Shown here: positions 12,584-59,274 of the stretch, piece after piece
Numbering within the stretch: the first letter of the stretch is position 1
Layout of the letters: each line of letters starts with the position of its first letter
Source: an uncultured Saprospiraceae bacterium
GTDB lineage: Bacteria; Bacteroidota; Bacteroidia; Chitinophagales; Saprospiraceae
Length of the DNA: 64,000 nucleotides
Assembly (NCBI GenBank): GCA_964508085.1
Contig: CAZDTI010000001.1
Location: 74-64,073 of the forward strand
Direction of reading: 5' to 3'
Notes under the pieces: model-generated
The model's input: only the letters and a program-made list of their open reading frames with translations
Databases searched by the model: none
Told to the model about the DNA's origin: nothing
Position numbers and translations under genes: made by a program

Positions 12584-13066
12584 ATGGCAACACCAAAAAA
12601 TAACAAACCTCTTCGCTATTCTGATAAAGAATTAGCAGAATTCAAAGAACTCGTAGACCAAAAAATCGCTGATGCTCAAGAACAGGTTCGGCAGCTACAA
12701 GAGCAGGTTCTCGAACTCAATGAAAGCTTGCAAACAAGCGGTGCCGACTTAGGGGACAACTCTGCATACACTGATGTTGAATTTATAAATAACTTGATTT
12801 TCAGACAAAAGAAGAACATTCAGGATCTGGAAAATGCGCTTCTTCGCATCAAGAACAAAGTTTATGGTATTTGTACCCTTTCGGGAGATTTGATTGATAA
12901 AAAGCGCTTGATGATTGTGCCTACCACCATGAGGAATCTTGTGGCCAAAACAGAGGCAGAGAAAAAGGCAGCTGCTAGATCTAATCCAAGGCGAACTTTA
13001 TTATCTGATCGAAAACCAATTCCACAATTTGGTAAAAATAATACAAATAAAAAACCAAAAGAGTAA
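12584..13066 (+). CDS. DksA/TraR-like protein (Bacteroidota type, degenerate zinc finger)
   Basis: Start at ATG 12584 (MATPKNNKPLRYSDKELAEFKEL...). Coiled-coil N-terminus, then NKVYGICTLSGDLIDKKRLMIVPTT, which retains only one Cys of the C4 finger. Confidence 0.55.
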   Translation: MATPKNNKPLRYSDKELAEFKELVDQKIADAQEQVRQLQEQVLELNESLQTSGADLGDNSAYTDVEFINNLIFRQKKNIQDLENALLRIKNKVYGICTLSGDLIDKKRLMIVPTTMRNLVAKTEAEKKAAARSNPRRTLLSDRKPIPQFGKNNTNKKPKE

Positions 13067-13079
13067 CTACGAATGCCCA

Positions 13080-13122
13080 CCTCGTTCTAGCAAAAATAAA
13101 TACGATTTTCGCTAGAACGAGG
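13080..13122 (+). terminator. perfect 12-bp stem hairpin downstream of the DksA-like gene
   Basis: CCTCGTTCTAGC (13080-13091) pairs with GCTAGAACGAGG (13111-13122). The loop is 19 nt and A/T-rich. Confidence 0.5.
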
Positions 13123-13144
13123 CAGAATTTAATGACGACGACCT

Positions 13145-13768
13145 ATGAGCTTCTACCCTTCCCTCCAAAACTATATTACTGAACTTCTTACTGAGCTTGA
13201 TCAAATACCAGAAGCCCGCCGTGAACTGCTTAGGCCGCTTGGTCAGTACTGCAAAAAGCAAGTAGATATAGGTAAGCCCCTAAATCTTGTTGTCATTTGT
13301 ACCCATAACTCACGACGTAGTCATATGGGACAACTTTGGCTAAGAGCCGCCGCTCATTACTACAAAATCCCAAATGTAGAAACCTATTCTGGCGGAACAG
13401 AAGGCACTGCATTTAATCCCAGGGCCGTAAAAGCCATGAAAGAAGCTGGTTTTAAGATTTCCAAGAAGACAGATGGAAGTAACCCCCGTTATCTTGCCAC
13501 TATACACGCCGAAGACGACGGCCAACTCCTATTCTCGAAATGCTATGATGACGCTCCAAATCCAACAAAGGATTTTGCACCTATTCTGGTTTGTACAGAA
13601 GCAGATAAAGGTTGTCCGATTATTTTGGGAGCTGATGAACGTTTTCCCATTCCTTACAATGACCCTAAAGCATTTGACGATACTGACTCTGAAGAAAAAG
13701 CTTATTCAGAGCGTTGTCGGGATATTGCACGAGAGATGTTCTTTGCTTTGGAGATGGTAATGGATTAA
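13145..13768 (+). CDS. low-molecular-weight phosphotyrosine phosphatase / ArsC-type arsenate reductase family protein
   Basis: CX5R(S/T) P-loop in VVICTHNSRRSHMGQLW. Size of 207 aa fits the LMWPc family. Confidence 0.75.
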   Translation: MSFYPSLQNYITELLTELDQIPEARRELLRPLGQYCKKQVDIGKPLNLVVICTHNSRRSHMGQLWLRAAAHYYKIPNVETYSGGTEGTAFNPRAVKAMKEAGFKISKKTDGSNPRYLATIHAEDDGQLLFSKCYDDAPNPTKDFAPILVCTEADKGCPIILGADERFPIPYNDPKAFDDTDSEEKAYSERCRDIAREMFFALEMVMD

Positions 13769-13790
13769 TTCATTTATAATTAAAAACAGA

Positions 13791-13827
13791 TTGCTGTAAA
13801 AACAGATTGAAGTATTGCTGTAAAAAA
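13791..13827 (-). repeat. two reverse-orientation TTGCTGTAAAAA copies at the outer edge of the repeat tract
   Basis: 13791-13802 and 13815-13827. The second copy overlaps a 9-bp hairpin (AAGTATTGC / GCAATACTT) that may also terminate the phosphatase gene. Confidence 0.5.
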
Positions 13828-14082
13828 GGCAATACTTGTTTACTGTTTTATTAACTCCCTTTCTAGTTGTATTCCATTAAATTCGTTTTACCACTAGTTG
13901 CTATTAAGGACTAGTAGGCGATGATCTTAACTAAACCGGTTCAACATACTTTTTGTAATACCTTTTTTAAGCTAAATGAAATTAGCAATCTCTAAAAAGG
14001 TATTAGATGTAACTCTACGCTTTTGTTATCACCTCCTCTCCCCTACTCTATTTCTTATTGGTCGTTTCATTAACCACAGCAT

Positions 14083-15990
14083 TACAGATTTACAGCAATA
14101 TGTTTTGCTGGTTTCCTTGTTTTATAGGTAAAGTTAGGAATAAGGCGTTAGCGCCCACTGCGTCTATTCCTAAATAAGTCAAATAGGCTGCTCCTTTAAC
14201 GTGAAAGTACAACTTGAAAAATCCATAAAACGACGCACCTATAATTCCTACAGATCGTTCAACTTAGACCTGCATAGAAAGGCTAGCCCAAATTTATCAA
14301 AGTAGACCACTTCAGGAAAGGCAATGTTATGGCTAAAAGCTAAATTAGAAATTCTATCTTCCGCTTTGTATTTATTTTACAGCATTCATTTTTTACAGCT
14401 ATACAGCATAATTTGTTTTCGCTAGCTTTAGGTTTCCTTTTATGCTTAAGAAATGAGTATTCATAAATCAGCCTTACTGCCTTTTATCCGGAGTCATACT
14501 CTCCTTCCATTCGATCTAACCCTATTGGTGATGCAGCAATTAATTGTACCTTTTGAAAGGTCAACTTCACTTTAAGAACCATTTAATAATTACTGCAATA
14601 CAGCATTCTGTTTTTACAGTAAAAAATAGATAATAACATTTCTAAGCCAATTAATTCTCTTTTCAACATTATTGAACGTTTTTTATAATAAAGCTACTCT
14701 GAATCAATTTAAAAGGCTTTCCTTGGAAACACAGACTTAAATTAATTTAGGAGAGAAAGCTGAAGGGACTTGGTAAAGTTGAATTCTATTCTATTTTCAG
14801 AATATGCTATAAATATGTTTTTACAGCAATACAGATTTAATGCAAAAGTATCCTTATGAAAATGGAATTAAAGACTTTAAATATCTATTTAAAATTTTTA
14901 CCGGGATTGCTCTACCAAGTGTATCAATCCTCTAGCAGCCCCAAATCCATTAAGGGAAATCTGCCCGCTGAAACATTATGGCACAGTCTCCTTTTTTATC
15001 CGCAATTGAATCTATTGTTCAAAATTTTCAATGAATCACTAGTTGAAACGAGAGTGGTACTTTATAAGTAATTGCTTTGGCTTTAACTTCAAAAAGTATA
15101 TACAGATTCACTTTTTACAGCAATACAGCATGCTTGATGGCTTTTCGAATTCTAAACTCAGCTAAATGAGGAAACAGCATTTTTAGATCCAAACTATATA
15201 ATCAAAGTCATCATTGAAAACCCTGACTGAAAGGCCAGTCAAGGACTTCGCATATTTTAGAGAGCCAAGCCGATCAAACCTTTTTGTTAAAATTGTAACG
15301 AATCAGATTTTTGATTTTGACTCGATCAAACAACTTGTAAAGATCTAATCTAAAAAATCTAGACGTAGGGATTAGTCTGACACTAATTTCATTTTATTGC
15401 GTAAATAAAGCGATACAGCATGCTTGTTTTACGGCAATAATGAACGGCTTCAAAATTCTCTTTCTAAGAGCATCAGTGGCGTTTTCGACGTACTATTCGT
15501 TTTTAACAAAAAAACCGCTCTGAGGCAATTTAAAGACTACTGGTTAAAGAATAGGCTTTGATTCTTTTAATGGAGAAACAAGATTGGTATGGATGCCCTT
15601 GAACTTTCATTTTCAGAGGTCGCAGTAAAACTACTTTTCTGGTTTTACAGCAATACAGGTTTACAGCGTTCATTCTTAGAACAATAGAGAAATTTCGTCT
15701 CTAAAAATAAGGCTTGAACGGAGACAAAGCTCTCTTACAAAAAACGTGAAGGTTTAGTAATCGTCAAATAAGAGGATAATCGTAATGTGAGGACTATTCA
15801 GATGGAATTGTGGTTAGCGGGGCTGGCCTACTTGTAGGATAGGAGGCAGGGAGGCGCAAAGACAGACTTTATTCAAAACCTCTTTATTAGCTTATATTGA
15901 GATTTACTCGAATTCTAGGCATAAGTAAGGTGCTAAATTAAAATAGAATCTGTATTTACAGCAAAACATATATCTGTATTTACAGCACAG
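14083..15990 (+). repeat. eight dispersed clusters of 8-bp-phased TACAGCA(A/T) units; candidate partition centromere or operator array
   Basis: Clusters at 14083-14100, 14378-14409, 14591-14620, 14822-14837, 15101-15131, 15414-15437, 15646-15669 and 15948-15988. TTTTACAGCAATACAG is exact at 14819, 15113 and 15643. Confidence 0.7.
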
Positions 15991-16023
15991 CGTTCGTTAA
16001 CCCTGTGTAATTCTACCAAAAAT

Positions 16024-16323
16024 TTAATCCTCAAGGTTCAAATCTTTCCGAACCAATTCCACAATGTATTTCTTCAAAGTCACCCGTTTTTCAAAAGAGG
16101 CATACTTCAAAGCGGTATAAACACTCACTGGGAAATCAATAGTGACTCGCTGAACAGCTTCTTTTTCTCTAATTGGTTTTGCTACTGGAGTAGGGGAGGG
16201 GCTAACCTCTTCGGTATGCACCTGCTTAATGATACGTTCCGAACTTTGCACATCTGGGGCTGCCTTTTTCAATACTTTCTTTTGTGTAAGGCTTTGCTTA
16301 AATAAATCTTTTTTATTAGCCAT
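16024..16323 (-). CDS. small ribbon-helix-helix (ParG/CopG-like) partition or centromere-binding protein
   Basis: 99 aa, immediately downstream of parA. The C-terminal RVTIDFPVSVYTALKYASFEKRVTLKKYIVELVRKDL has a beta-alpha-alpha RHH pattern. The N-terminal tail is basic and flexible. Confidence 0.6.
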   Translation of the reverse strand: MANKKDLFKQSLTQKKVLKKAAPDVQSSERIIKQVHTEEVSPSPTPVAKPIREKEAVQRVTIDFPVSVYTALKYASFEKRVTLKKYIVELVRKDLNLED

Positions 16324-16410
16324 GGTTGAATTATCTTTTGATTCCTTGATTATGATTCATCTCTTCCGATCAATTATCAAAGAAACTTTATTTTTAAAAT
16401 AGAACGGATC

Positions 16411-17061
16411 TTAGGAAACCAAATTAATGATTTCATTACAAAGATTAATAACTTCTTGTTTTGCCTGCGGGTTGGTGTATTCATAGACGCCCATTCCCTG
16501 CAGGTTAGCTTCACCATAGGCAGAGCGATCTACTAGCTTGCTTTGCATGGTATCTACTCCGTAGGTTTCCTTAAACTCAGATAGTGCTTCTAGATAAGCT
16601 TGATGCATCTTCACATTCGCTCTAAAGCGATTGACAACGAAAGCGGCAGGAATAGCAGAGCCTTTTTGGTCCCGAATCAGATCGTAATGCTCCAGTAATT
16701 GCTCCGTTGTCCAGATATCAGACCCACCTGTAGGCGTAATTGGAATTAACAAAAGGTGACTGGCAAGGATGATCTTACTGGCAATTTTAGATAGAGCCGG
16801 AGGGCTATCAATGATAATAACCTCATAATCATCGTACAAAGCTTTAATATTTTGCATGATGGCCTGAGGATCGGTATTGCCATAAACAGGAATGTTGGGT
16901 AGTTCACTGCTTCGACGCCCCAACCAACTCTGACTGTTTTGAGAGGTATCCGCATCGAGAATACATACTTTGTAACCGGTATGCGCCAAACAGACAGCTA
17001 CGTTTTGAGCTACTGTAGTCTTGCCAACTCCTCCTTTATAACTTAGGGAAGATAGAATCAT
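16411..17061 (-). CDS. parA: ParA-family partition ATPase (small, type Ib-like)
   Basis: Deviant Walker A SYKGGVGKTTVAQN. 216 aa with no N-terminal HTH. Also ILDADTSQNS and IIIDSPP motifs. Confidence 0.9.
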   Translation of the reverse strand: MILSSLSYKGGVGKTTVAQNVAVCLAHTGYKVCILDADTSQNSQSWLGRRSSELPNIPVYGNTDPQAIMQNIKALYDDYEVIIIDSPPALSKIASKIILASHLLLIPITPTGGSDIWTTEQLLEHYDLIRDQKGSAIPAAFVVNRFRANVKMHQAYLEALSEFKETYGVDTMQSKLVDRSAYGEANLQGMGVYEYTNPQAKQEVINLCNEIINLVS

Positions 17062-17129
17062 AGTGTTTCGTTTTTACTAAATGGATAAAGTCCATTTGTA
17101 ATCGCAAATATAGTTTTTCATTCTAATAT

Positions 17130-17186
17130 TTGCTGTAAAAACATAAATAATGTTTTGTATAATTACTTTTTGCTGTATTGCTGTAA
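17130..17186 (-). promoter_or_regulatory. TACAGCAA-type repeats in the parA upstream region (candidate operator or second centromere site)
   Basis: TTGCTGTAAAAA at 17130-17141 and TTGCTGTATTGCTGTAA at 17170-17186. These lie 70-125 bp upstream of the parA start, oriented co-directionally with parA. Confidence 0.5.
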
Positions 17187-17252
17187 TAAAAAATCCCAAC
17201 ACATACCATTATGACTGTGTTGGGATTTCTTGTTTTTTATACTAAAGCTCTA

Positions 17253-18071
17253 TTAGAAAGGATTATAAATCCCTGGCCCACCAGCCATTTCCATCAAACC
17301 TGCGATATTAATCATAAAGGTTACACCACCAAACCAATACACGTCTTTTCTGTTTGGGTTTCCTCTTTGCCTTCCAACAGGGTTAGGTAATTTATCATCT
17401 CCTAAGTATTCAGGTGTTCGATAAGCCAAACCTGCGGCTATACTATTCGTTTCAGTCAAGGCATCTATATCCGTATAATTCCCACTTACATCATCTAAAT
17501 AATCAGTAAACGTTTTTCTTAAGCCTCCCTCCATTCCAATAGAAATGGCATCGGTCAGATATACTTGAGCTCCAAATCCTCCTGGTATGGATATTTGGTA
17601 TAGCCCATATACGCTATTTTGCCCCTCTGTACGAAGAGGTTGTAGATCATACCATTGATTCTGGTAAACCGCCTTAGGGTTATGGTGAAAACCCGCAACT
17701 CCACCAAATACAAATGGAGAGAAAATTGGACGATCTCCCGTCATGAAAGACAAAAAGTGGAATTCTGCCAAGGCGTTCAGCTCCTTAATCTGAGATTTAA
17801 ATGATAGATTTCTGGAAGCATTTCGCCCTCGATCTTCTCCAGATATAGTCGATTTTGTAAAACTGATCCTAGCATCTAGGAATTCATTGATTCTGTATTT
17901 TCCAATGACACCAGTCGCAAGACTGATTTCTGCTTTTTCTAGATGAGTGGATTGAACATCCCCCATATAGCCAGACGAACCGACGAAGAAGCCGACTTCC
18001 ACGCCTTGAGCATTCATGATGAAAATAGTAGCAAATAGTAGGTAACAGGTAGAGATAACATTCTTACACAT
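17253..18071 (-). CDS. outer-membrane beta-barrel protein (porin-like, unknown function)
   Basis: Signal peptide ...LLFATIFIMNAQG. Alternating hydrophobic beta-strand pattern. C-terminal aromatic residue (…IYNPF). Confidence 0.55.
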   Translation of the reverse strand: MCKNVISTCYLLFATIFIMNAQGVEVGFFVGSSGYMGDVQSTHLEKAEISLATGVIGKYRINEFLDARISFTKSTISGEDRGRNASRNLSFKSQIKELNALAEFHFLSFMTGDRPIFSPFVFGGVAGFHHNPKAVYQNQWYDLQPLRTEGQNSVYGLYQISIPGGFGAQVYLTDAISIGMEGGLRKTFTDYLDDVSGNYTDIDALTETNSIAAGLAYRTPEYLGDDKLPNPVGRQRGNPNRKDVYWFGGVTFMINIAGLMEMAGGPGIYNPF

Positions 18072-18385
18072 AACAATTCCTTTTTAGTAATGAAAACATT
18101 TAAATAGACTAAAAGGGGAGTATTCTGATAAGGGGGATCAGTTCTTAATTAATTATTGCTACTTAAACTACTATCCAGCCATTCTGGATTTTAGCAAAAA
18201 GCAAATCATTTAAAAGGGGGAGATATCACTGGCTAAAATTGAGGGGAAGTTAACTTGACTTAGCCAGAATACAATCTCACTTAGACAAAGAGCATACCAT
18301 TTGACAAAAAACTCGATACGGGAAGCTTTATTATTCTGATCTGAGGCAAGTTATTATCTATAAAATAGAATAGAGGTAAGCAATT

Positions 18386-18424
18386 GAAAAAGCGCAGATT
18401 TCATAGGAAAACCCGCGCTTTTTC
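18386..18424 (-). terminator. hairpin downstream of rep
   Basis: GAAAAAGCGC (18386-18395) pairs with GCGCTTTTTC (18415-18424). A/T runs on both sides. Confidence 0.35.
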
Positions 18425-18482
18425 TGTTATTAAGACTTATAGCTTGAACGACATACCCAAATAGAAGTGAAATAAATAATAG

Positions 18483-19835
18483 TTAATTCAACTTCTCATA
18501 CCAATTTCTACACTTATGGTACACCTGGGTTTCAATTACCTGACGAAATTTCAAAGGGTTAAACTGCTGGCCAGCGCTATTTATCTGTTCCTTAAAGTTT
18601 GTATTTACTTCAGTTAGGAAAGAACGGTACTGATCTGGATATTCTTCTTTAAAATACTCCAAGTTAAATGGTTGTAGTTTATTCGCAAATTGATGTACCT
18701 CTACGCTTTTTAGATGAACCTTTGCTTTTACAGTGGCCATTGTTCCTTTTTTATTGTCTTCCCGCTGCATTAATTCTTCTTCATTCATCGCTTTCTTACG
18801 GTTTAGAATATGTTCCATCATACGGGCATGAAGCTGATTTTCTGTCAACCGACCTTTTTTCCACCAACTTACAAAAGCACCCGCTGGCTTATCCGCATTG
18901 GTTTTATCCATAAAAAACTTCCAAATGGCTTTCATATATAGGTCCTCATAGCCACGCAATGGCTCATAAGTTAGTTTTTCGTGCCCTAATACTTGATCAA
19001 CGATGAATCGTTTGTTCACTCCTTTTTCAGAAAGGAACCGATAAGCGTGATATTGAGCCCAACTCAGCTGCTCTTTAAGATCTCCTCCCGAAGCAGACTT
19101 TAAGAATGATTTTTTCTTATTGTAGGTATTATCCACCTGTGACAATATTTTGATTCGATCGGGAGAGTGCTTTGGCTCGTTTTCATAAATATAAAATTTT
19201 AAGCTCAAAATACGTTTCCCCGCCTTCTTAGCAGGCACAAAATCGAAGCGAATATCTGTGAATTTCTTGATTTCTCTTTGCGAAGGAATCAAGACCCAAC
19301 GTTTAAATTCGTAATACTTAGGGTATCGTTCTTCTATTCCAAGGTAGAATTTGAGTTTATCCACCGTAATTTCACATTCTCCCTTGAATTGATAGCGTTT
19401 CAAAACCTCATATAATCGAACCGCATTAGCATTGAGATAGACAATATTGCTAATATTGTACTTTGTAAAATGCTCTTTGAGTTGGAGTAAATATTCTCGC
19501 AACCGCTGAGAGAGACTAAAGGTAAATATATCAGTGTCTGTGTCGTGTTCCATATGTTGGAGCCAAACCGATTTTCCAATGATACTCCCTTTTTCATAAA
19601 TGATGGGTTCTGAATTTAGCTTATCCATTAGAGAGAAGACCTCTGATTTATTGGCAATACGCCGTTTCCCATCAAAGTTGATGATCTTTTCTATTTCAGA
19701 ATAATGCATCTTGTGCTCTTGAAGATCTTTATGATTTTGAGAAATCTCAGAAATGAGGTGGAGTACAAAGAATTGCTCACGTGCACTCAGTTTATAACTG
19801 GTTTCAATGAGCTTATTATGTTTGATTATAGCCAT
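18483..19835 (-). CDS. plasmid replication initiator protein (Rep_3/RepB-like)
   Basis: N-terminus MAIIKHNKLIETSYKLSAREQFFVLHLISEI... is typical of iteron-binding initiators. It sits directly beside the iteron array. Confidence 0.8.
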   Translation of the reverse strand: MAIIKHNKLIETSYKLSAREQFFVLHLISEISQNHKDLQEHKMHYSEIEKIINFDGKRRIANKSEVFSLMDKLNSEPIIYEKGSIIGKSVWLQHMEHDTDTDIFTFSLSQRLREYLLQLKEHFTKYNISNIVYLNANAVRLYEVLKRYQFKGECEITVDKLKFYLGIEERYPKYYEFKRWVLIPSQREIKKFTDIRFDFVPAKKAGKRILSLKFYIYENEPKHSPDRIKILSQVDNTYNKKKSFLKSASGGDLKEQLSWAQYHAYRFLSEKGVNKRFIVDQVLGHEKLTYEPLRGYEDLYMKAIWKFFMDKTNADKPAGAFVSWWKKGRLTENQLHARMMEHILNRKKAMNEEELMQREDNKKGTMATVKAKVHLKSVEVHQFANKLQPFNLEYFKEEYPDQYRSFLTEVNTNFKEQINSAGQQFNPLKFRQVIETQVYHKCRNWYEKLN

Positions 19836-20020: not shown

Positions 20021-20409
20021 GATGTAACTCTACGCTTTAAAGAGTGTGATCGAAGAATAATATGATGTATTCCTACGCTTATTGATGTATTTCTACGCTT
20101 TTCATAACTTGAAAATATAGAATCCTTTGATTTATATGGGTATTCAGCTCTTAAAGGATGTAGATCTACGTTTATTGATGTATTTCTACGCTTTAAGATG
20201 TTGCTCTACGTTATTCGATGTAAACCTACGCTTTTAGTATGCTCTTGATGTAACTCTACGTCGATTGATGCTATACTACGTCTTTTGATGAAACTCTACG
20301 CTTATATAATGTAGTCCTACGCTTTATTGATGTAGTTCTACTTTTTAGGGAAATGTGGTTCTACTCTTTATTGCAGTATCTCTACGCTTTTATGAAGTAG
20401 AACTACGCC
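20021..20409 (+). repeat. oriV iteron array: about 15 direct repeats, consensus (T)GATGTAnnTCTACGCTTT
   Basis: Copies start near 20021, 20064, 20084, 20157, 20177, 20197, 20217, 20247, 20267, 20287, 20308, 20329, 20352, 20372 and 20393. Most are spaced 20-23 bp apart. Confidence 0.85.
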
Positions 20410-20610
20410 TTAATAGTTGTAATAGGTTGATTATTAGTACTTTAATAGCTCCCTAAATGTATAAATGTTAAAGAACTTAGGTATAAATTAAAAAACCTAG
20501 GAAAGAAAAAGGTGTTTTTTAATACCAAGTATTTGTTGATTTAGGTCATTTTTTGGAAAGAAAAAAGTTGCGACAAAAAAGAAAAGAGAAATAAAGGTAG
20601 CTTTGAGACC
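20410..20610. other. A/T-rich tract next to the iterons (candidate DNA-unwinding element)
   Basis: Runs such as GGAAAGAAAAAGG, GGAAAGAAAAAAG and CAAAAAAGAAAAGAGAAATAAAGG. No ORF. Confidence 0.4.
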
Positions 20611-20617
20611 GACAATT

Positions 20618-20730
20618 GATGTAACTCTACGTAGAAGAAAATGCTTTAGGCCATAGTCGAAATTTAAACTTGATGTAACTCTACGCTTTAAAAGAGATGA
20701 AGTGCGTACTTATAGCGTAGAGTTACATCA
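20618..20730. repeat. three additional iterons, including an inverted pair
   Basis: GATGTAACTCTACGTAG at 20618. GATGTAACTCTACGCTTT at 20672-20689 faces AGCGTAGAGTTACATCA at 20714-20730. Confidence 0.6.
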
Positions 20731-21360: not shown

Positions 21361-23151
21361 ATGACGAATAGATTTATCCTAGTTTTCTTTTTTTTGACAT
21401 TCCCCATCTTCCTTTTTTCGCAAGGAGTTGGTGTACCACTACAATCAGATAGTTACCATATAATAGATCGCTTAGAAATAAAAACTGGACTGCTCAACCC
21501 GAGTTATAGTTCTATCAAGCCCTATCGAAGAGGGGATATAACCAAATATGCAATGGATATAGATAGTAGTGTCTTAGCTATAAGTTCTAAAGATCAAAAT
21601 GACCTCTATTATATTTTTAAAGACAATAATGATTTTGTACCAGATGTCCCCGAAGATAAGAAGATAGGGGAGGAGTTAAATAAAGTCTATGTAGACAGCT
21701 CTAAGACTTTCTATACGTTACAAAAAAATGCAGAAAAGCATAGTCGTGGTTATTACTTTGAAACGGAAAAGCCAATTCTAAAATATTTCTATCGAACTCC
21801 AGGTAATGCTTTTGAGTTTAATAAAAAAGCATTCTATTTTAAAGTGAACCCCTTATTAAGAGGAACAGTTGGTTTTGACCAAAATGAAGAAGATTTTTTA
21901 TTTGATAATGTACGAGGGGTTGCTGTACGAGGGGGAGTTGATAAAAAAGTTTTTTTCTATACGGAGGTTCAGGAAAGTCAATCTCGATTTCTGACTTATG
22001 TCAATCAACGAATAGAAAGAGATGCAGCGGTTCCTGGTGCAAGTTTGTATAAAGTTTATGACAGTTCTGTCATTGACTCAAAAGGAGCTTATGATTATTT
22101 GAATGCTCAAGGATATTTCGGCTTTAATATCTCCAAACATGTTGGAGTTCAATTAGGACATGGCGCAAACTTTATAGGAAATGGGTATCGATCTTTATTC
22201 CTTTCCGATTTTGCTGCCAATTATTTTTACCTAAAATTAAACACTCGAGTTTGGCGATTCCATTTGCAGAATATCTTTGCAGAATTAAATGCAGCGAGTG
22301 GCCGCGATGGTCAAGGGGATAATCTGATTCCTAAAAAGTATTTTGCTGCTCATTACCTGAATGCTCGAATTACCAAAAATCTCCAAATCGGATTATTTGA
22401 GTCAGTTGTCTTCAGTCGGCAAAATCACTTTGAACTTCAATATCTTAATCCTGTTATACTTTATCGAAGTGTAGAACATTTGATTGGCAGTCCCGATAAT
22501 GTCTTAATTGGAATGGACTTTAAATGGAATATATTTAATCGATTCCAATTATATGGTCAGATGGTTTTTGATGAATTCAAATTTGATGAATTGATTTTAG
22601 AACGGAATGGATGGTGGGCTAATAAATATGGTATTCAGGCAGGACTAAAATACATCGACGTTTTCGGAATTGATCACTTAGATGGGCAATTGGAATACAA
22701 TACGGTAAGGCCATATACATACACTCACAGGGATAGCCTAGCAAATTATAGTCATTATAATCAGCCATTGGCGCATCCTTTAGGCGCTAATTTTCGAGAA
22801 GTGATTGCTAAGCTTCGATATCAAGTGACTAAGAAATTGATGGTGGAAGGCCGACTAATTAATATGCAATACGGTATTGATACAGATTCGACTAACTGGG
22901 GAAGTAACATATTATTAAACAACAATAGTCGCGAACAGGAATATGATAATAAAACAACCCAAGGAATAAAAACCACAACTCAAATTATTGGTCTTGATAT
23001 TAGTTATCAAGTTTTTCATAATATGTATATTGATTTAAATTACTTTTACAGAAATCAAAATAGCGAAGACGATCGTTTTGATTTGAAGAACAACTATATT
23101 GGCGGCGGAATTCGGGTTAACTTGAATAGGAGCAGGAAAGGAGAATTTTAA
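21361..23151 (+). CDS. outer-membrane beta-barrel protein (Wzi/RemB-like, tentative)
   Basis: Signal peptide MTNRFILVFFFLTFPIFLFSQ. N-terminal SYHIIDRLEIKTG motif. Long alternating-strand C-terminal region. Confidence 0.45.
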   Translation: MTNRFILVFFFLTFPIFLFSQGVGVPLQSDSYHIIDRLEIKTGLLNPSYSSIKPYRRGDITKYAMDIDSSVLAISSKDQNDLYYIFKDNNDFVPDVPEDKKIGEELNKVYVDSSKTFYTLQKNAEKHSRGYYFETEKPILKYFYRTPGNAFEFNKKAFYFKVNPLLRGTVGFDQNEEDFLFDNVRGVAVRGGVDKKVFFYTEVQESQSRFLTYVNQRIERDAAVPGASLYKVYDSSVIDSKGAYDYLNAQGYFGFNISKHVGVQLGHGANFIGNGYRSLFLSDFAANYFYLKLNTRVWRFHLQNIFAELNAASGRDGQGDNLIPKKYFAAHYLNARITKNLQIGLFESVVFSRQNHFELQYLNPVILYRSVEHLIGSPDNVLIGMDFKWNIFNRFQLYGQMVFDEFKFDELILERNGWWANKYGIQAGLKYIDVFGIDHLDGQLEYNTVRPYTYTHRDSLANYSHYNQPLAHPLGANFREVIAKLRYQVTKKLMVEGRLINMQYGIDTDSTNWGSNILLNNNSREQEYDNKTTQGIKTTTQIIGLDISYQVFHNMYIDLNYFYRNQNSEDDRFDLKNNYIGGGIRVNLNRSRKGEF

Positions 23152-23246
23152 AAGCGTAGAGATACATCAGGTGTAACTACCAAGGATAAAATATTTTTTT
23201 GCTGTTGCGTGACAGTCAGCATCAGAACTAAAATAAATGATTAAGA

Positions 23247-26200
23247 ATGACAACTACAAAAGATTTAGCAGCAATATTACATGAGGTAATAAAGGATCGA
23301 ATTCTTGTACTCGATGGGGCAATGGGAACGATGATTCAAGAATACGGTCTCCAAGAAAAAGACTTCCGGTCTGAACGATTTGCAGACCACCCCTGCGACG
23401 TACAAGGAAATAATGATCTGCTATCAATCACTCAACCACATGTCATCGAAGCAATCCACAAAGCTTACCTTGATGCAGGGGCTGATATTATAGAAACCAA
23501 TACTTTTAGTTCAACTTCAATCGCGCAGGCCGATTATCAGATGGAGTACCTGGCCTATGAAATGAATAAGGCCTCCGCTGAAGTCGCCAAAAAAGCGGCA
23601 TTAGAATACACAGAGAAAACCCCAGACAAACCTCGATTCGTAGCTGGAGCTCTTGGACCAACCAACAGAACGGCCTCCCTATCTCCTGATGTAAATGACC
23701 CCGGTTATCGAGCGGTAACCTTTGACGAATTGGTTGATGCCTATTATGAGCAAACTAAAGGACTGGTAGATGGTGGTTCCGACATATTATTGGTTGAGAC
23801 CATTTTCGATACCCTTAATTGTAAGGCTGCACTTTTTGCCATTGACAAACTCTTTGATGAATATCAAATGAAGTTACCCATTATGATTTCCGGAACGATC
23901 ACGGATGCTTCTGGCCGAACCTTGTCAGGACAAACGGTAGAAGCTTTTTGGATTTCGGTAAGTCATATGAATCTGTTTTCTGTTGGCTTGAATTGCGCTT
24001 TAGGTGCTAAAGAAATGAGACCACACATTGTGGCTTTGTCAAAAATATCTGATTGTTATATCAGTGCTTATCCAAATGCCGGATTGCCAAATGAGTTCGG
24101 AGAATATGATCAGACACCGGAGGAGATGCAAGAATTTATCCGTGATTTTGCTAGTAATGGTTTTGTAAATATCATTGGAGGTTGTTGCGGAACGACACCT
24201 GACCATATTAATGCAATGGCAGTTGGTGTGAGAGACGTAGCTCCAAGAAAAATTCCGGAGCAGGAAATGCTGAGTCAGTTCTCTGGATTGGAGCCATTGA
24301 TTATGAGAAAAGATCTGAACTTCATAAATATTGGCGAGCGAACGAATGTAACCGGTTCAAAGAAATTTGCCCGACTCATTAAAAATGGTGATTTAGCGGA
24401 AGCCCTTTCTGTTGCCCAACAACAGGTAGATGGTGGCGCTCAAATTATTGACGTCAACATGGATGAAGGTTTGCTCGATTCGGAAAAGGCCATGGTTGAT
24501 TTTCTGAATTTGGTAATGGCAGAACCAGACATTGCCAAACTACCGATCATGATTGATTCTTCTAAGTTCAATGTCATCGAAGCGGGACTTAAATGTGTGC
24601 AAGGTAAATGTATTGTTAACTCCATTTCCATGAAAGAAGGAGTGGAGGAATTTAAACGTCAGGCGAAAATAGTCAGACGTTATGGTGCTGCTGCGGTCGT
24701 AATGGCCTTTGATGAAGTAGGCCAAGCGGATACCATTTCCAGAAAGGTAGAAATCTGTGAACGTGCGTATAAGATTCTAGTAGAGGAAGTAGGTTTCAAG
24801 CCTACCGACATCATTTTTGATCCTAATATTTTTGCAGTAGCTACCGGTATCGAAGAGCACAATGAATACGCAATTAATTTCATTGAAGCCACTCGACAAA
24901 TAAAGGAGAAATGTCCTGGAGCAAAAGTGAGTGGGGGAGTAAGTAACATCTCTTTCTCTTTCCGTGGTAATAATAATGTCCGCGAAGCCATGCATTCCGC
25001 CTTCCTCTATCACGCTATCAAAGCGGGAATGGATATGGGAATTGTGAATGCAGGAATGATGGAGATTTACGAAAATATACCAAAAGAGCTTTTAGTGTTG
25101 GTTGAAGATGTATTGTTTAATAGAACAAAAAATGCGACTGAAGCCTTGACGGATTATGCGCAACGCGTAAAAGATGGTGGACGTGTTTTGGTAAAAGATA
25201 TGTCTTGGAGAGAAGGAACGGTAGAAGAGCGTTTGTCTCATGCTTTGGTAAAAGGAATAACGGAATTCATCGATATAGATACTGAGGAGGCACGACTGAA
25301 ATATCCACGACCTTTACACGTAATCGAAGGCCCTTTGATGGATGGGATGAACATTGTAGGCGACTTGTTTGGAGAAGGAAAAATGTTCTTACCACAGGTA
25401 GTAAAATCTGCCCGTGTAATGAAAAAGTCCGTTGCCATTCTAACACCATATATAGAAGCAGAAAAGAAGAAAGGAGGAGATACTTCTACTAAAGGAAAAA
25501 TATTGATGGCTACCGTAAAAGGAGATGTACACGATATTGGTAAAAATATAGTTGGAGTAGTGCTCGGTTGTAATAATTATGATATTGTAGACATTGGGGT
25601 GATGGTACCTTGTAGCCAGATTTTGAAAGTAGCCCGACAAGAAAAAGTAGATGTAATTGGATTAAGTGGCTTAATTACGCCTTCACTCGATGAAATGGTT
25701 TATGTAGCCAAAGAGATGGAAAGAGAAGGGTTTAATATTCCATTATTAATTGGAGGAGCGACGACTTCTAAAACTCACACTGCTGTGAAAATTGAGCAGC
25801 AGTATTCCGGTCCGGTGGTTCATGTATTGGATGCCTCTAAATCGGTAGCCGTTGTAAGTACATTGTTAAGCAAGGAAGAAGGTGTTAAGGATACATTTGT
25901 AAAAAGCTTGGATGAAGAGTATGATCGGGTACGGGTCTTGCGTGGAAATAGAAAATCGTCTAAGAAGTATTTGACAATTGAAAAGGCCCGGGAAAACAAA
26001 CTGAAATTAGACTGGGCAAATTATGAGCCAGTCAAGCCAAAATTTGTAGGAACAAAAAGCTTTTTCGATTATGACTTAGAAGAGCTGAGTGATTACATTG
26101 ACTGGACACCATTTTTTGCTACCTGGCAGCTCCGAGGAAAATATCCAGCGATTCTCGAGGACGAAGTAGTAGGGGAGGAGTGTAAAAAATTGTTCCATGA

Positions 26201-26945
26201 TGCACAAAGTATGCTTCGGCAAATCATAGATGAAAAGTGGCTAACGGCCAAAGGCGTCTTTGGAATCTTCCCAGCAAACAGTGTTATGGATGATGACATC
26301 GAAGTTTATACCGACGAATCTCGCGAGGGCGTTGATGTCGTTCTACGCAATTTGCGACAGCAACGAAAGAAAGCACCTGGCCAACCGAATTATTCACTGA
26401 CTGATTTCATAGCGCCGAAAGAAAGTGGTGTACAAGATTATGTTGGTGGCTTCGCAGTTACTACAGGTCTTGGAATTGAGAAACATGTCAAAAGGTTCGA
26501 GGAAGATAACGACGATTACAATGCTATTTTACTCAAGGCTTTAGCGGATCGTTTAGCAGAAGCTTTTGCAGAAAGGATGCATGAAAGAGTGCGAAAAGAA
26601 TTCTGGGGCTATGCTTCTGAAGAAAACTTGGATAATGAAGGTATGATTGCAGAAAAGTATAAGGGCATTCGTCCTGCACCGGGTTATCCAGCTTGTCCAG
26701 AACATACGGAAAAGGAGTCCTTGTTTAAACTATTGGATGCAGAGGCTTTGACGGATATTACCTTGACGGAGAGTTATGCGATGTATCCGGCGGCGGCTGT
26801 TAGTGGTTGGTATTTTGCGCATCCGGAGTCTAAGTACTTTGGATTGGGGAATATTAATAAGGACCAGTTGGAGAGTTATGCGGAACGGAAGGGGATGTCG
26901 GTGGAGGATGCGGAACGGTGGTTGCAATCGGTATTGAATGAGTAA
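23247..26945 (+). CDS. metH: cobalamin-dependent methionine synthase
   Basis: 1232 aa with all modules. Hcy-binding domain (GGCCGT). Pterin-binding domain. B12-binding DxHxxG in [14 protein letters not shown]-terminal AdoMet reactivation domain ([12 protein letters not shown]). Confidence 0.95.
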
Positions 26946-37920: not shown

Positions 37921-40107
37921 CTACTCATTTGGTATTAACTTGACCATCCGGATAACGGCTTGATTCCCTAAGTATACTTTTAATAAATAGCCTCCCGGAG
38001 AAAGTAGCTTTTGTAAGTTGATTTGATGTTGATTCGAATTTATATTGTTATCAGTGAAAACAATAGCCCCTAATGCATCATAGATTTCTACCTTGGTAAT
38101 TGTTTTTTTTGCCTCTAATGTAAGTTGGTTTTGAGTAGGATTGGGGTAAATATAAACCTCCGATTCCTCAGGTTTTAACTCAGTTAGTTCGGTAATAAAA
38201 ATGTTTTGCTGTAAAGTATCTGAGAAACAATCATTGGAGGCAATTAAAGTGATGTTTGTTTCTCCAGATTGATTGTAAGGCGTTTCCAATATCTCATCAG
38301 AAAAGATTGTTCCGTTAGGGAGTACCCAGTGATATTGATTTGCGCTCGTTGAAGTATTAATGCCTGTTAAGATACCTTGCATCCAAGAAAGGCTAAAGCC
38401 AGCTTCAGGTAGGACATTTGGGGTCGTTTGAATGGAAACAATTGGCCCTGAGCTGTGATTAATAAAAGAACCACTCGGAGTTATTTCTTGCTTCACTGCT
38501 TTGACTAAATACTTGATTTGTGTTCCCCCTGCGATACAAGAATCCACAAAATTAGTTTCTGTGATTGGCGAGAGATGAAGTGGTTCGAAGTAGTTCATTC
38601 CCTCCGTTTTTTTATAAACCTGATATCCTTGGATATCCTCCGGACTAGAAGACCAACTCAACTCAACGTGGTTTTCATTTTGAACAGCATTCAAATTAGA
38701 AGGAGGTCGGACAATAAAAGTTTTTAAAGTGGGGTCTCCTAATAAGTTTATAGTAACGAATTTGGCTTGTACGCCAGGATAATATAAGTCTAAATTGTTT
38801 TGAGTCAATAAAGTACAAAATCCCAGATCCATACCTAAACCCATTGGATGAAAGTGCCAACTCGGAGCACCAACCCAAGCCGTGCTAAGCACCTTTCCTG
38901 AAGCCAAGACGGTTCGAAGAAAATTATTTTCATTATCAAAATCTCCATAGGTAGAGCCAAAGAAACCAGTAAAAATGACTTGATAATTGTTGTCTGCAAA
39001 AGTGTTTATATCTCCAAGGCCAAAAGCACCAAACATATATCCGGCTGATCCGAAGTATGACCAAAGGTAAGGTTCTTCGAAGCCTGCCATTATTTCATCA
39101 TATACTATACTATCATTAGATACGATCGGAACAAAACTCCTTATCGCGTTTTGTCCCAGTCCCTCAGCCCAAGGGCTTATATTCCTGAAAATTGCACGTT
39201 TTCTAACCTGATAATCTCCTGTCCGGAAAGCAATGTTTTTTTCTAGATAGTTGTCTAGGAGCTCATATTCATTAAGGTCAAAAACAGGAAGTTCAGAAAA
39301 GTCCATACGACCCACAGCTAATTCGACATTGCTGGGAATAGAATCCTGATCAAATTTTCCATCACCCGGGACATTATGAACACTTGGATAAATACTCGTA
39401 TTATTATTGACCGTTTCATCTGTCCAAACACCATCTATATCACCATAAAAAGCATCTGCCGGCCAAGCACCTTTATGATTACTGTGACCGTCAGGTGTGA
39501 TATTACCCGAATGTGGGACGGCAATATTTCCCATTAACAGAACTGCGGAGAGAGAATCACGAGTGGTATAATTTTCTAGTATCAAGGACTTGATTTCCTG
39601 AACAGAAGACTCTTCAGCAACAGGGAGCAGCCAAGGGATCCATCCTTCTGAGGTCAAAACATCCATGTAAGTACTAATGTTATCTTCAACAAAGGTAGCG
39701 GCTGTTGAGTCTATTACTATCAGTATATCTCCCTTTTTCTGTGGAGGTAAATAATTTACACCCGATAGTAAATAGCCATAGCCGACGGTATCTCCAGTTA
39801 CTTTTACAATTCGATATTCATATAAATTTCCCTCTTCAATATTGGTATCAACAAAGCTGGTATCTTGATCGCCTGTGACAATAAGAGGTGTTCCCCAGTC
39901 CGTGTCTTGTGGTAATTTTTTATAAAGACTATAGGTATTTACATCAATATCATCCCACCATTGAATCCGTAAGCTGAGAGGTTGCTCACTAGCTAAGGCA
40001 GTCATTTTTACCGTTTTTAGCGTATCAAATATAACTTGTCCCTTGCAGGTAACTTGAGACAAAAAGCTTAAAGTGATTATCCAAAATACATTTTTTAGAA
40101 TAGTCAT
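37921..40107 (-). CDS. secreted T9SS type A cargo protein with FN3-like and PKD-like modules; N-terminal catalytic-looking domain unassigned
   Basis: Signal peptide. C-terminus VYIYPNPTQNQLTLEA...GGYLLKVYLGNQAVIRMVKLI. FN3-like PSNLNAVQNENHVELSWSS. A possible C25-like peptidase region could not be confirmed. Confidence 0.55.
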   Translation of the reverse strand: MTILKNVFWIITLSFLSQVTCKGQVIFDTLKTVKMTALASEQPLSLRIQWWDDIDVNTYSLYKKLPQDTDWGTPLIVTGDQDTSFVDTNIEEGNLYEYRIVKVTGDTVGYGYLLSGVNYLPPQKKGDILIVIDSTAATFVEDNISTYMDVLTSEGWIPWLLPVAEESSVQEIKSLILENYTTRDSLSAVLLMGNIAVPHSGNITPDGHSNHKGAWPADAFYGDIDGVWTDETVNNNTSIYPSVHNVPGDGKFDQDSIPSNVELAVGRMDFSELPVFDLNEYELLDNYLEKNIAFRTGDYQVRKRAIFRNISPWAEGLGQNAIRSFVPIVSNDSIVYDEIMAGFEEPYLWSYFGSAGYMFGAFGLGDINTFADNNYQVIFTGFFGSTYGDFDNENNFLRTVLASGKVLSTAWVGAPSWHFHPMGLGMDLGFCTLLTQNNLDLYYPGVQAKFVTINLLGDPTLKTFIVRPPSNLNAVQNENHVELSWSSSPEDIQGYQVYKKTEGMNYFEPLHLSPITETNFVDSCIAGGTQIKYLVKAVKQEITPSGSFINHSSGPIVSIQTTPNVLPEAGFSLSWMQGILTGINTSTSANQYHWVLPNGTIFSDEILETPYNQSGETNITLIASNDCFSDTLQQNIFITELTELKPEESEVYIYPNPTQNQLTLEAKKTITKVEIYDALGAIVFTDNNINSNQHQINLQKLLSPGGYLLKVYLGNQAVIRMVKLIPNE

Positions 40108-58948: not shown

Positions 58949-59274
58949 GTCAACTGTTAGCTTCCCACTATCGCGTATTTGATAACGTGCAAATTTAGCT
59001 ACCTTATTTTCTGAGAATGATCTCTTGCAGAATCGTAGTTTTTGCGTTCTGGGAAACTAACAACCAATAACCTCGGCTATTCAGGCACAAAAATAGAATT
59101 GCTGTTATTTTTGCATATTAGTTCAAAAATTATTGATATGACCTATGTACCAGAGAAAAACCCGGCCGTTCCAGACCATCCAACAAATCATTGAAGAAGC
59201 AGAGGCAGACTTACCCAAAGAATAATTTCTCCTTTACAGCAACACATCACATCAAAAACAACATCATAACATAC

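Follow-up and report, generated by a model that had tools for sequence, protein, structure and literature searches.

Dispersed TACAGCA clusters beside a parA operon: a probable centromere and operator for type Ib-like partition of a large Saprospiraceae Rep_3 replicon

The window analysed here, a stretch of 64,000 nucleotides from an uncultured Saprospiraceae bacterium (contig CAZDTI010000001.1), carries a small parA operon which is followed by a tract free of genes. The operon consists of the gene of a small ParA-type ATPase and of the gene of a protein of 99 amino acids (aa) that resembles ribbon-helix-helix (RHH) proteins, while the short word TACAGCA recurs in phased clusters through the tract and upstream of parA. 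The tract and these sites are probably the centromere and the operator of a type Ib-like partition system, which belongs to a large Saprospiraceae Rep_3 replicon. The reading is based on the enrichment and phasing of the word, the conservation of word and layout, the decay of the spacers between the clusters, the RHH-like predicted fold of the 99-aa protein and a joint change of the word and the putative DNA-reading strand in other lineages. The preliminary description of this DNA had interpreted the locus as centromere and operator, and its interpretation is supported by the comparative and structure-prediction evidence, that is by the RHH-like fold, a motif distinct from the iterons, 12 loci with the same layout and the word-strand change.

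The parA operon and the clusters of the gene-free tract

The operon and its upstream region contain the following features.

16411..17061, minus strand: ParA-type Walker ATPase, 216 aa, with the deviant Walker A motif KGGVGKT at residues 9-15
16024..16323, minus strand: gene of the 99-aa candidate centromere-binding protein, beside the small ParA
17105..17112, minus strand: -7 box TATATTTG upstream of parA, fitting the Bacteroidota -7 consensus TAnnTTTG
17130..17187, minus strand: operator-like sites, TACAGCAA TACAGCAA (17171-17185) and a single TACAGCAA (17131-17137)

The 216-aa ATPase is matched by the Pfam families AAA_31, CbiA, ParA, VirC1 and MipZ, and the closest plasmid-borne ParA proteins are found on Runella, Spirosoma and Haliscomenobacter plasmids, with identities of 42-48%. 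As is characteristic of type Ib systems, the ATPase is a small Walker-type ParA (about 200 aa) that has a deviant Walker A motif and is without an N-terminal helix-turn-helix (HTH) domain, the second gene of the operon encodes a small RHH protein, which is recognised at the level of family and fold, and arrays of short repeats, which relatives share, lie beside the operon and include one that overlaps the par promoter. The single upstream TACAGCAA is situated roughly 20-30 nt upstream of the -7 box, as counted from the sequence.

Downstream of the operon nine clusters were found in the tract.

13791..13823, minus strand: far-edge cluster, two perfect TACAGCAA units and one degenerate unit, inverted relative to the main array and closing the tract
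14075..14098, plus strand: cluster 1, CACAGCAT TACAGATT TACAGCAA, three units in 8-bp phase
14378..14409, plus strand: cluster 2, TACAGCAT, a degenerate slot, then TACAGCTA TACAGCAT
14591..14622, plus strand: cluster 3, TACTGCAA TACAGCAT, a degenerate slot, then TACAGTAA
14822..14845, plus strand: cluster 4, TACAGCAA TACAGATT TAATGCAA
15101..15131, plus strand: cluster 5, TACAGATT, then TACAGCAA TACAGCAT 15 bp from the start of TACAGATT
15406..15437, plus strand: cluster 6, TAAAGCGA TACAGCAT, a degenerate slot, then TACGGCAA
15646..15669, plus strand: cluster 7, TACAGCAA TACAGGTT TACAGCGT
15948..15988, plus strand: cluster 8, ATCTGTATTTACAGCA twice (15948 and 15972), 24 bp apart, adjoining the stop codon of the RHH gene

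The enrichment of the motif, which had been proposed as a check, was found: TACAGCA occurs 26 times in the window, while 5.55 +/- 2.6 copies are expected from dinucleotide shuffles, and 16 of the 26 copies fall in the 3.4 kb between 13792 and 17185. These are located on the plus strand at 14091, 14378, 14402, 14599, 14822, 15116, 15124, 15414, 15646, 15957 and 15981, and on the minus strand at 13792, 13816, 17131, 17171 and 17179. The density of the TACAG core on the plus strand is 5.6/kb in 13780-17190 as compared with 0.8/kb in the rest of the window. The 8-bp-phased pair TACAGNNNTACAG is confined to the locus, since all of its seven copies in the window lie in 14083-17185 (0.06 expected). 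Exact copies of the 15-mer TTTACAGCAATACAG were seen at 14820, 15114 and 15644, and when up to 3 mismatches are allowed, the tract accounts for 11 of 16 matches.

In the 8-bp register each cluster can be described as 3-4 slots, 2-3 of which match TACAGCA in at least 5 of 7 positions, and the array of the window totals about 28 units. Perfect units are often preceded, in the slot directly on their 5' side, by TCTGTTTT or TATGTTTT, an imperfect inverted half-site, and both ATCTGTATTTACAGCA copies of cluster 8 are inverted CTGTA..TACAG pairs. The eight clusters between 14075 and 15988 share one orientation; the far-edge cluster and the sites upstream of parA have the opposite one. Neighbouring clusters are about 210-315 bp apart; the automatic count of clusters required two TACAG cores, by which the cluster at 15414 was skipped and one gap of 540 bp was returned for the window. 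The cluster coordinates and orientations given in the preliminary description were all confirmed by reading positions 13000-18500 and by searching the whole window. The same holds for the gene-free character of the tract, since no open reading frame (ORF) longer than 71 aa is present in 13768-16024 and the relatives do not conserve any of the stop-to-stop frames at the protein level.

Outside the tract, single TACAGCA copies number 10, with roughly 5 expected. A solitary near-consensus site, TTTACAGCAAAACAT, lies at 38201-38215 on the minus strand and is identical to the site at 15955, and two sites with 2 mismatches (59233-59247 and 59317-59331, both on the plus strand and 84 bp apart) are found at the start of a polysaccharide-export ORF. 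The near-consensus sites at 38201, 59233 and 59317 may be due to chance or may be weak secondary sites.

Conserved clusters and drifting spacers in related loci

The relatives of the locus, designated below by L numbers, all come from metagenome-assembled genomes (MAGs) of Saprospiraceae or Chitinophagales. The dispersed layout recurs in 12 Saprospiraceae loci, where operator sites at the parA promoter are accompanied by 5-10 clusters of 2-7 units over 2-4 kb; these loci belong to different Saprospiraceae MAGs and span GC contents from 30% to 48%. When the loci of the relatives were compared, the core density was 7-11/kb within the locus and 0-1.9/kb outside. Conservation of the cluster spacing in related replicons had been named as a check of the centromere interpretation, and a conserved protein-coding gene across the tract as a refutation; the dispersed layout was conserved, and no such gene is conserved in the homologous replicons.

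In the close clade (L001, L002/L003, L004 and L005) the gene order is MetH - Wzi - small gene - Rep_3 - (DUF6089) - ParA - RHH - gene-free tract, and each locus has an 8- to 11-fold excess of TACAGCA. Upstream of parA, sites precede a conserved TATATTTG -7 box, which in L001 and L002 likewise lies downstream of the motif, and 5-9 clusters follow downstream of the RHH gene. The operator-like sites upstream of parA are conserved in L001, L002, L005 and clade B. The far-edge cluster has a counterpart of the same position and orientation in L005 (8654/8678) and L002 (11953/11961), both of which thus end in a terminal cluster of opposite orientation, and the last cluster of L001 is also opposite to most of its array. 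L001 has cluster spacings of about 130-220 bp and L002 of about 175 bp, those of L005 are about 190-410 bp, and the length of the tract varies from 1.0 to 2.5 kb among the close relatives. In clade B (L007-L013) the protein is about 35% identical overall, with VQRVT(V/I)DFP kept exactly, and TACAGCA is present in 5-9 clusters of 2-7 units over 3-4 kb. There the clusters are placed on both sides of the operon as well as between parA and the RHH gene, the phasing of the units is nearer to 10-11 bp, and Rep_3 lies beyond the downstream tract.

Comparison of the window with L005 revealed a coding DNA identity of 77-84% and a continuous alignment through rep and the origin, while in the tract only the clusters and one segment of 280 bp could be aligned. 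Six-frame peptides of the tract had no conserved counterparts in the relatives. A hidden gene in the tract was considered and rejected, because no conserved ORFs were found and the tblastn matches mirrored the DNA similarity in several frames. From the conservation of motif and layout, the unalignable spacers and the unconserved peptides together, it is judged that the clusters are under selection and the spacers are not.

Each cluster could instead be a promoter controlled by the RHH protein, which would drive a small RNA or peptide encoded in the following spacer, so that the tract would be an array of mini-genes. The common orientation of the clusters and their T-rich 5' flank are in line with this proposal, and omega of pSM19035 acts at several promoters, its three parS sites being promoter regions (PMC5016525). 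However, within 13700-17300 the TATATTTG box of the parA promoter is the only TAnnTTTG match which adjoins a cluster, and the two remaining matches (14296 and 14850) are on the strand opposite to the array. A scan for sigma-70-type promoters yielded fewer promoter-like sites than shuffled sequences did, and no periodic terminators were detected. Rfam gave no match, neither with its gathering thresholds nor with a limit of E <= 1. Between the window and L005, whose genes are about 80% identical, the spacers cannot be aligned, and the few short peptide hits were in several frames over the one stretch that aligns as DNA. The three units of L002, which are 76% identical, fold weakly; the covariation term is unfavourable on both strands and many pairs are broken. 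This alternative, which had been left standing in the preliminary description, is thus unsupported by -7 boxes, Rfam, folds, peptides and promoter or terminator scans, and we consider it very improbable.

The second alternative of that description was a decayed tandem repeat. According to this, the tract would be a long-period repeat in decay, essentially junk, in which TACAGCA is merely the best-preserved remnant. A repeat of this kind is clear in L002, where a unit of 176 bp is repeated in tandem (3.2 copies, 76% identity) with one cluster in each unit. In the window Tandem Repeats Finder found no long-period repeat in the tract, but one pair of spacers, 14623-14821 and 15438-15645, is still alike (z = 7 against shuffles), the only significantly similar pair; the resemblance of 15139 to 15445, which had been quoted earlier as the example of inter-cluster likeness, did not exceed that of shuffled sequences. 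The variable length of the tract among the close relatives also fits this reading. Neutral decay would, however, erase the motif as fast as the spacers, and yet the word is exact in loci of 30% to 48% GC that have unrelated spacers. Moreover, the parA promoter carries the same word outside any tandem repeat, as does the interval between the two genes in clade B, and in other lineages the word changes together with the protein. As an account of the whole tract the junk repeat is therefore regarded as extremely improbable. As the origin of the tract, tandem duplication is likely: since the 176-bp repeat of L002 carries one cluster per unit, the tract likely arose, and grows, by tandem duplication of a cluster-plus-spacer unit. 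This is not a rival of the centromere reading.

The 99-aa protein and its predicted recognition of the word

The 99-aa protein is composed of a Lys-rich N-terminal half, predicted with low confidence, and a C-terminal strand-helix-helix (residues 56-94). Its own sequence gave no match in Pfam and nothing significant in a sequence search of the PDB. The first homologue search returned fifteen close homologues (67-93% identity), and a profile search extended the family to 129 proteins of 62-125 aa, almost all of them unnamed. In 55 representatives R59 and D63 are invariant, while T61, P65, Y69, K73, T82 and K84 are nearly so. When these 55 relatives were compared with Pfam under a lenient limit (E-value of at most 1 in place of the curated cut-offs), 32 matched RHH_5 (best E-value 1.3e-6) and a few matched ParD, ParG or Omega_Repress; ParG (PF09274) was matched by 3 of the 55 (best E-value 0.025) and Omega_Repress (PF07764) by 2 (best E-value 0.004). 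The window protein itself has no match to the ParG or Omega_Repress hidden Markov models and no significant membership in either family was obtained; by sequence it is outside the ParG and omega families. In an hhalign comparison with a ParG sequence the RHH domains were in register, with a probability of only 22%.

In the AlphaFold2 model built on the 55-sequence alignment, pLDDT (per-residue confidence) values are 95-97 for an extended segment at 56-65 and helices at 66-79 and 83-94. This model superseded a first one from 16 sequences (pLDDT 69), whose Foldseek matches were meaningless. With the later model, the Foldseek matches in the PDB were nearly all RHH structures: the RHH domain of MatP, ParG (1p94), Arc, CopG, VapB and AmrZ, with probabilities up to 0.98 and a best target TM-score of 0.86. 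In a PDB search with the C-terminal profile Arc was aligned in register at E = 0.65, which is not significant. A scramblase match of the full-length profile, at the N-terminus and with E ~1, was discarded as spurious. The RHH-like character of the protein is well supported by family membership and by predicted fold. The RHH assignment of the preliminary description therefore stands through the family (32 of 55 with RHH_5) and the fold, and does not stand as something readable from the sequence of the window protein.

The word was then compared with the predicted DNA-reading strand in the window and its relatives and in more distant members of the family.

Window, clades A and B: strand VQRVT(V/I)DFP, word TACAGCA
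L018 (38.9-kb contig with Rep_3): strand YARVTVDFP, word TACAGAA
L015 (no rep within 6 kb): strand KTRVSVDFP, word TAAGTA
pHALHY03, plasmid of a Haliscomenobacter hydrossis isolate: strand IRVSIDLP, word GTTTATAAGTATAAA (also given as TATAAGTATAA)
pRUNSL03, plasmid of a Runella isolate: strand RLSLD, word ATACTTAT three times, contiguous

RVT strands are paired with TACAG-type words and RVS or RLS strands with TAAGTA-type words. Such a co-change would be expected if the RHH strand reads the repeats. In L015, 31 of the 34 TAAGTA copies flank the operon, in a phase of about 10 bp and in clusters 50-110 bp apart; since rep is missing from the 6 kb around this locus, it is the parA-RHH pair, and not rep, that the motif accompanies.

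L018 and L019 come from two samples, and both contigs are 38,864 bp long and carry Rep_3, KilA-N, ParA, the RHH protein and a DNA methylase; it is likely that they represent a complete small plasmid or a phage-plasmid. Some of their TACAGAA clusters are located inside a gene of 465 aa.

In the proposed mechanism, dimers of the 99-aa RHH protein would read TACAGCA(A/T) with their paired beta-strands, with R59, T61 and D63 as the predicted base contacts, and would load side by side on 2-4 units in 8-bp phase. Binding to the sites at 17130-17187, at and upstream of the parA promoter, would bring about autorepression, while the nine mini-arrays at 13791-15988, 200-315 bp apart (eight in one direction and the terminal one inverted), would assemble into one partition complex with many sites. 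Nucleoid-bound ParA may then be stimulated by the Lys-rich N-terminal tails of the protein on these sites, by which the replicon would be positioned and segregated. The tract itself would have grown by tandem duplication of cluster plus spacer, the clusters being kept by selection while the spacers drifted. Binding, autorepression, ParA stimulation and the benefit of dispersal are what we infer from the locus.

Several points weigh against the centromere reading. The binding of the repeats by the 99-aa family is a prediction from sequences and models, the window protein itself being without a Pfam match or a significant PDB sequence match, and with a domain as small as about 40 residues no Foldseek E-value is below 0.3. 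The co-variation of word and strand comprises a handful of lineages in which ParA and all else differ as well, so the RHH protein is not singled out by it. Most clusters have only 2-3 good units, and by analogy with pSM19035, where fewer than 4 contiguous repeats activate ParA poorly, single clusters might not be competent centromeres. Finally, the spacing could be a by-product of duplication and of no importance in itself.

The replicon and the comparison with known partition systems

Replication functions are encoded to the right of the operon.

18483..19835, minus strand: Rep_3 family replication initiator, from Pfam
20021..20729, plus strand: iteron origin, 8 GATGTAACTCTACGCTTT-like repeats upstream of rep

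Across the Rep_3 iteron region the GC skew passes from negative values on the left to positive values on the right; the sign changes at about 19-20 kb, the cumulative minimum falls at about 18-20 kb, and the pattern is consistent with an active bidirectional origin. The possibility that TACAGCA is the Rep_3 iteron was rejected, since the origin iterons are a different 18-mer, GATGTAACTCTACGCTTT. Just one exact GATGTAACTCTACGCTTT copy is present in the tract (14006-14023, plus strand), 6 kb from the origin, and L005 has a lone copy at the matching relative place (8543). Further lone iterons away from the origin were seen in the rep gene (18692-18709) and in the Wzi/MetH intergenic region (23151-23168) of the window, and at matching relative places in L005 (3319) and L002 (3188 and 7540). 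This suggests that the lone iterons may be conserved remote Rep-binding sites, with a role in looping, handcuffing or regulation.

The remaining genes of the window include the housekeeping-type gene metH (23247-26945), nonribosomal peptide synthetase genes, TonB receptors and cargo of the type IX secretion system. A DUF6089 outer-membrane beta-barrel gene (17253-18071) lies between rep and parA; it is kept there in most close relatives (L002 8038-8862, L004 8296-9114) and absent from L001, and it is an odd passenger within a replication-partition module. The contig of L001, ctg318279_5x_c, is 274,806 bp long and, from the ending '_c' of its name, probably circular. From the 64-kb window with metH and the 275-kb contig of L001 it follows that the replicon is a large secondary Rep_3 replicon of Saprospiraceae and not a small Bacteroidota plasmid, and the length of the L001 contig suggests that replicons of chromid size are maintained in this family by the Rep_3/ParA/RHH module. 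In a search of PLSDB no match to the DNA of the locus or to the 99-aa protein was obtained, and plasmid relatives were found through ParA alone.

The sites could also be bound by the RHH protein with a main role other than segregation, either as a titration sink that tunes the repression of par or as a MatP/matS-like element that organises or silences the region near the origin, perhaps with the iteron at 14006 as a link to Rep. In favour of this, the top Foldseek match is the RHH domain of MatP, which binds dispersed sites, lone Rep iterons are conserved within the tract in the window and in L005, and clusters of 2-3 units would be poor activators of ParA by the rule established for pSM19035. 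On the other hand, the gene invariably shares its operon with that of a small ParA, a pairing which is the type Ib signature, a total of about 28 units fits the known type Ib range (20 boxes in TP228; arrays of 9, 7 and 10 in pSM19035), and the phased pairs of the window are confined to one locus instead of being spread over a domain. We consider such a role unlikely.

One of the closest known systems is ParF-ParG-parH of the E. coli plasmid TP228, in which the gene of a small Walker ParA likewise precedes that of a small RHH protein whose N-terminal tail is flexible. The ParG boxes are 4-bp ACTC words separated by 4-bp AT spacers and are arranged as an 8-box operator and a 12-box parH (PMC3130281). 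The 8-bp phasing, the presence of direct and inverted boxes and the division into one array that is the par-promoter operator and a second one that is the centromere are shared by the two systems (PMC3130281), and ParG (1p94) is among the best fold matches of the 99-aa protein. The differences lie in the arrangement: parH is compact, its 12 boxes running without a break over about 100 bp upstream of the operon, whereas here about 9 arrays of 2-4 units are distributed over 2.2 kb downstream, with non-conserved spacers of 200-315 bp. The core word has 7 nt here and 4 in TP228, and the 99-aa protein is without Pfam ParG membership (3 of 55 relatives, at E >= 0.025).

In the delta/omega system of pSM19035 (type Ib, Firmicutes) the RHH protein also binds 7-bp words in direct or inverted orientation, and the centromere is split into several sites: three separate parS arrays of 9, 7 and 10 heptads lie at promoters and double as operators (PMC5016525). 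At least 4 contiguous heptads are needed there for the activation of ParA; fewer activate poorly and interruption abolishes the effect (PMC9499535). Each parS is thus a long contiguous array at a promoter, whereas the clusters described here have 2-3 good units in 3-4 slots, without sites of at least 4 contiguous repeats, and they occupy a dedicated gene-free tract without promoter boxes.

The repeat arrays of pB171 par2 are said, from Ebersbach and Gerdes (2001) and later work, to flank parA-parB, with the upstream array serving as operator as well, and parC1 and parC2 are reportedly two compact arrays of about 17-18 hexamers each. Arrays on both sides of the operon are common to par2 and the present locus, which differs in having about ten mini-arrays with long spacers in place of two compact ones. 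The one-cluster units of 176 bp in L002 resemble a sopC (F plasmid) of long period; in the window one similar spacer pair was found, and Tandem Repeats Finder detected no head-to-tail units. The period of sopC is 43 bp. Type Ia systems (F sopC, N15 and the RK2 OB sites) differ in that they use a large, spreading HTH protein (ParB, SopB or KorB), in contrast to a small RHH protein without a known spreading mechanism. In type Ia, sopC consists of tandem longer units with one short binding site each, and sites are sometimes scattered over the genome, the function of the flanking DNA being unclear (PMC5016525).

The isolate plasmids pHALHY03 (NC_015513.1) and pRUNSL03 (Runella slithyformis, NC_015694.1) encode ParA proteins that are 42-48% identical to that of the window, and their downstream proteins, annotated as hypothetical only, end in xR(V/L)S(I/L)D..-helix-helix. 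On pHALHY03 dispersed GTTTATAAGTATAAA copies occur every ~80 bp upstream of parA (L020 4351-4612, 4957), while the repeats of pRUNSL03 are contiguous, ATACTTAT three times (L021 843-868). Both plasmids differ from the window in their TAAGTA-type word and in their shorter, upstream arrays. In a review, type Ib centromeres are described as lying upstream of the operon (PMC5016525). In the literature on Saprospiraceae replicons and on dispersed RHH centromeres no description of this layout or of the protein family was found. In summary, the mechanism class would be like type Ib and the total of units (about 28) is comparable, while the arrangement, roughly ten mini-arrays, each of 2-4 units, with unconstrained gaps of 130-700 bp in a gene-free tract of their own, is different and is kept throughout a family of bacteria.

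The dispersal could be either functional, through looping or bridging that gives a large complex without ParB-type spreading, or a by-product of array expansion. It is possible, although we hold it only tentatively, that the dispersal itself has a function: in such a 'regional' centromere the RHH-bound clusters of mini-arrays 130-700 bp apart, each by the standard of pSM19035 too short for the activation of ParA, would be looped or bridged into a large multivalent complex, which would be conserved across Saprospiraceae and renewed by duplication of the units. This would be an RHH solution, without CTP-driven spreading, for very large replicons (about 275 kb, with metH).

What is known of RHH-type (type Ib) partition comes from a few small plasmids whose centromeres are compact, and according to recent biochemistry ParA is activated only when at least 4 repeats are contiguous. 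The family described here would be a natural and evolutionarily maintained counter-design, in which 5-10 tiny arrays are set in 2-4 kb of otherwise unconstrained DNA on large Rep_3 replicons of an under-studied phylum. If this is true, it would provide a test case for the scaling of the size and geometry of the partition complex with cargo when the binder cannot spread, a predicted recognition series for RHH specificity (RVT strand with TACAG, RVS strand with TAAGTA), and building blocks from which stable vectors for Saprospiria and Bacteroidota could be made. The plasmids pHALHY03 and pRUNSL03 are culturable systems in which the model can be tested. By this analysis a putative function is assigned to a family of about 130 proteins that have so far been unnamed or listed as 'hypothetical protein'.

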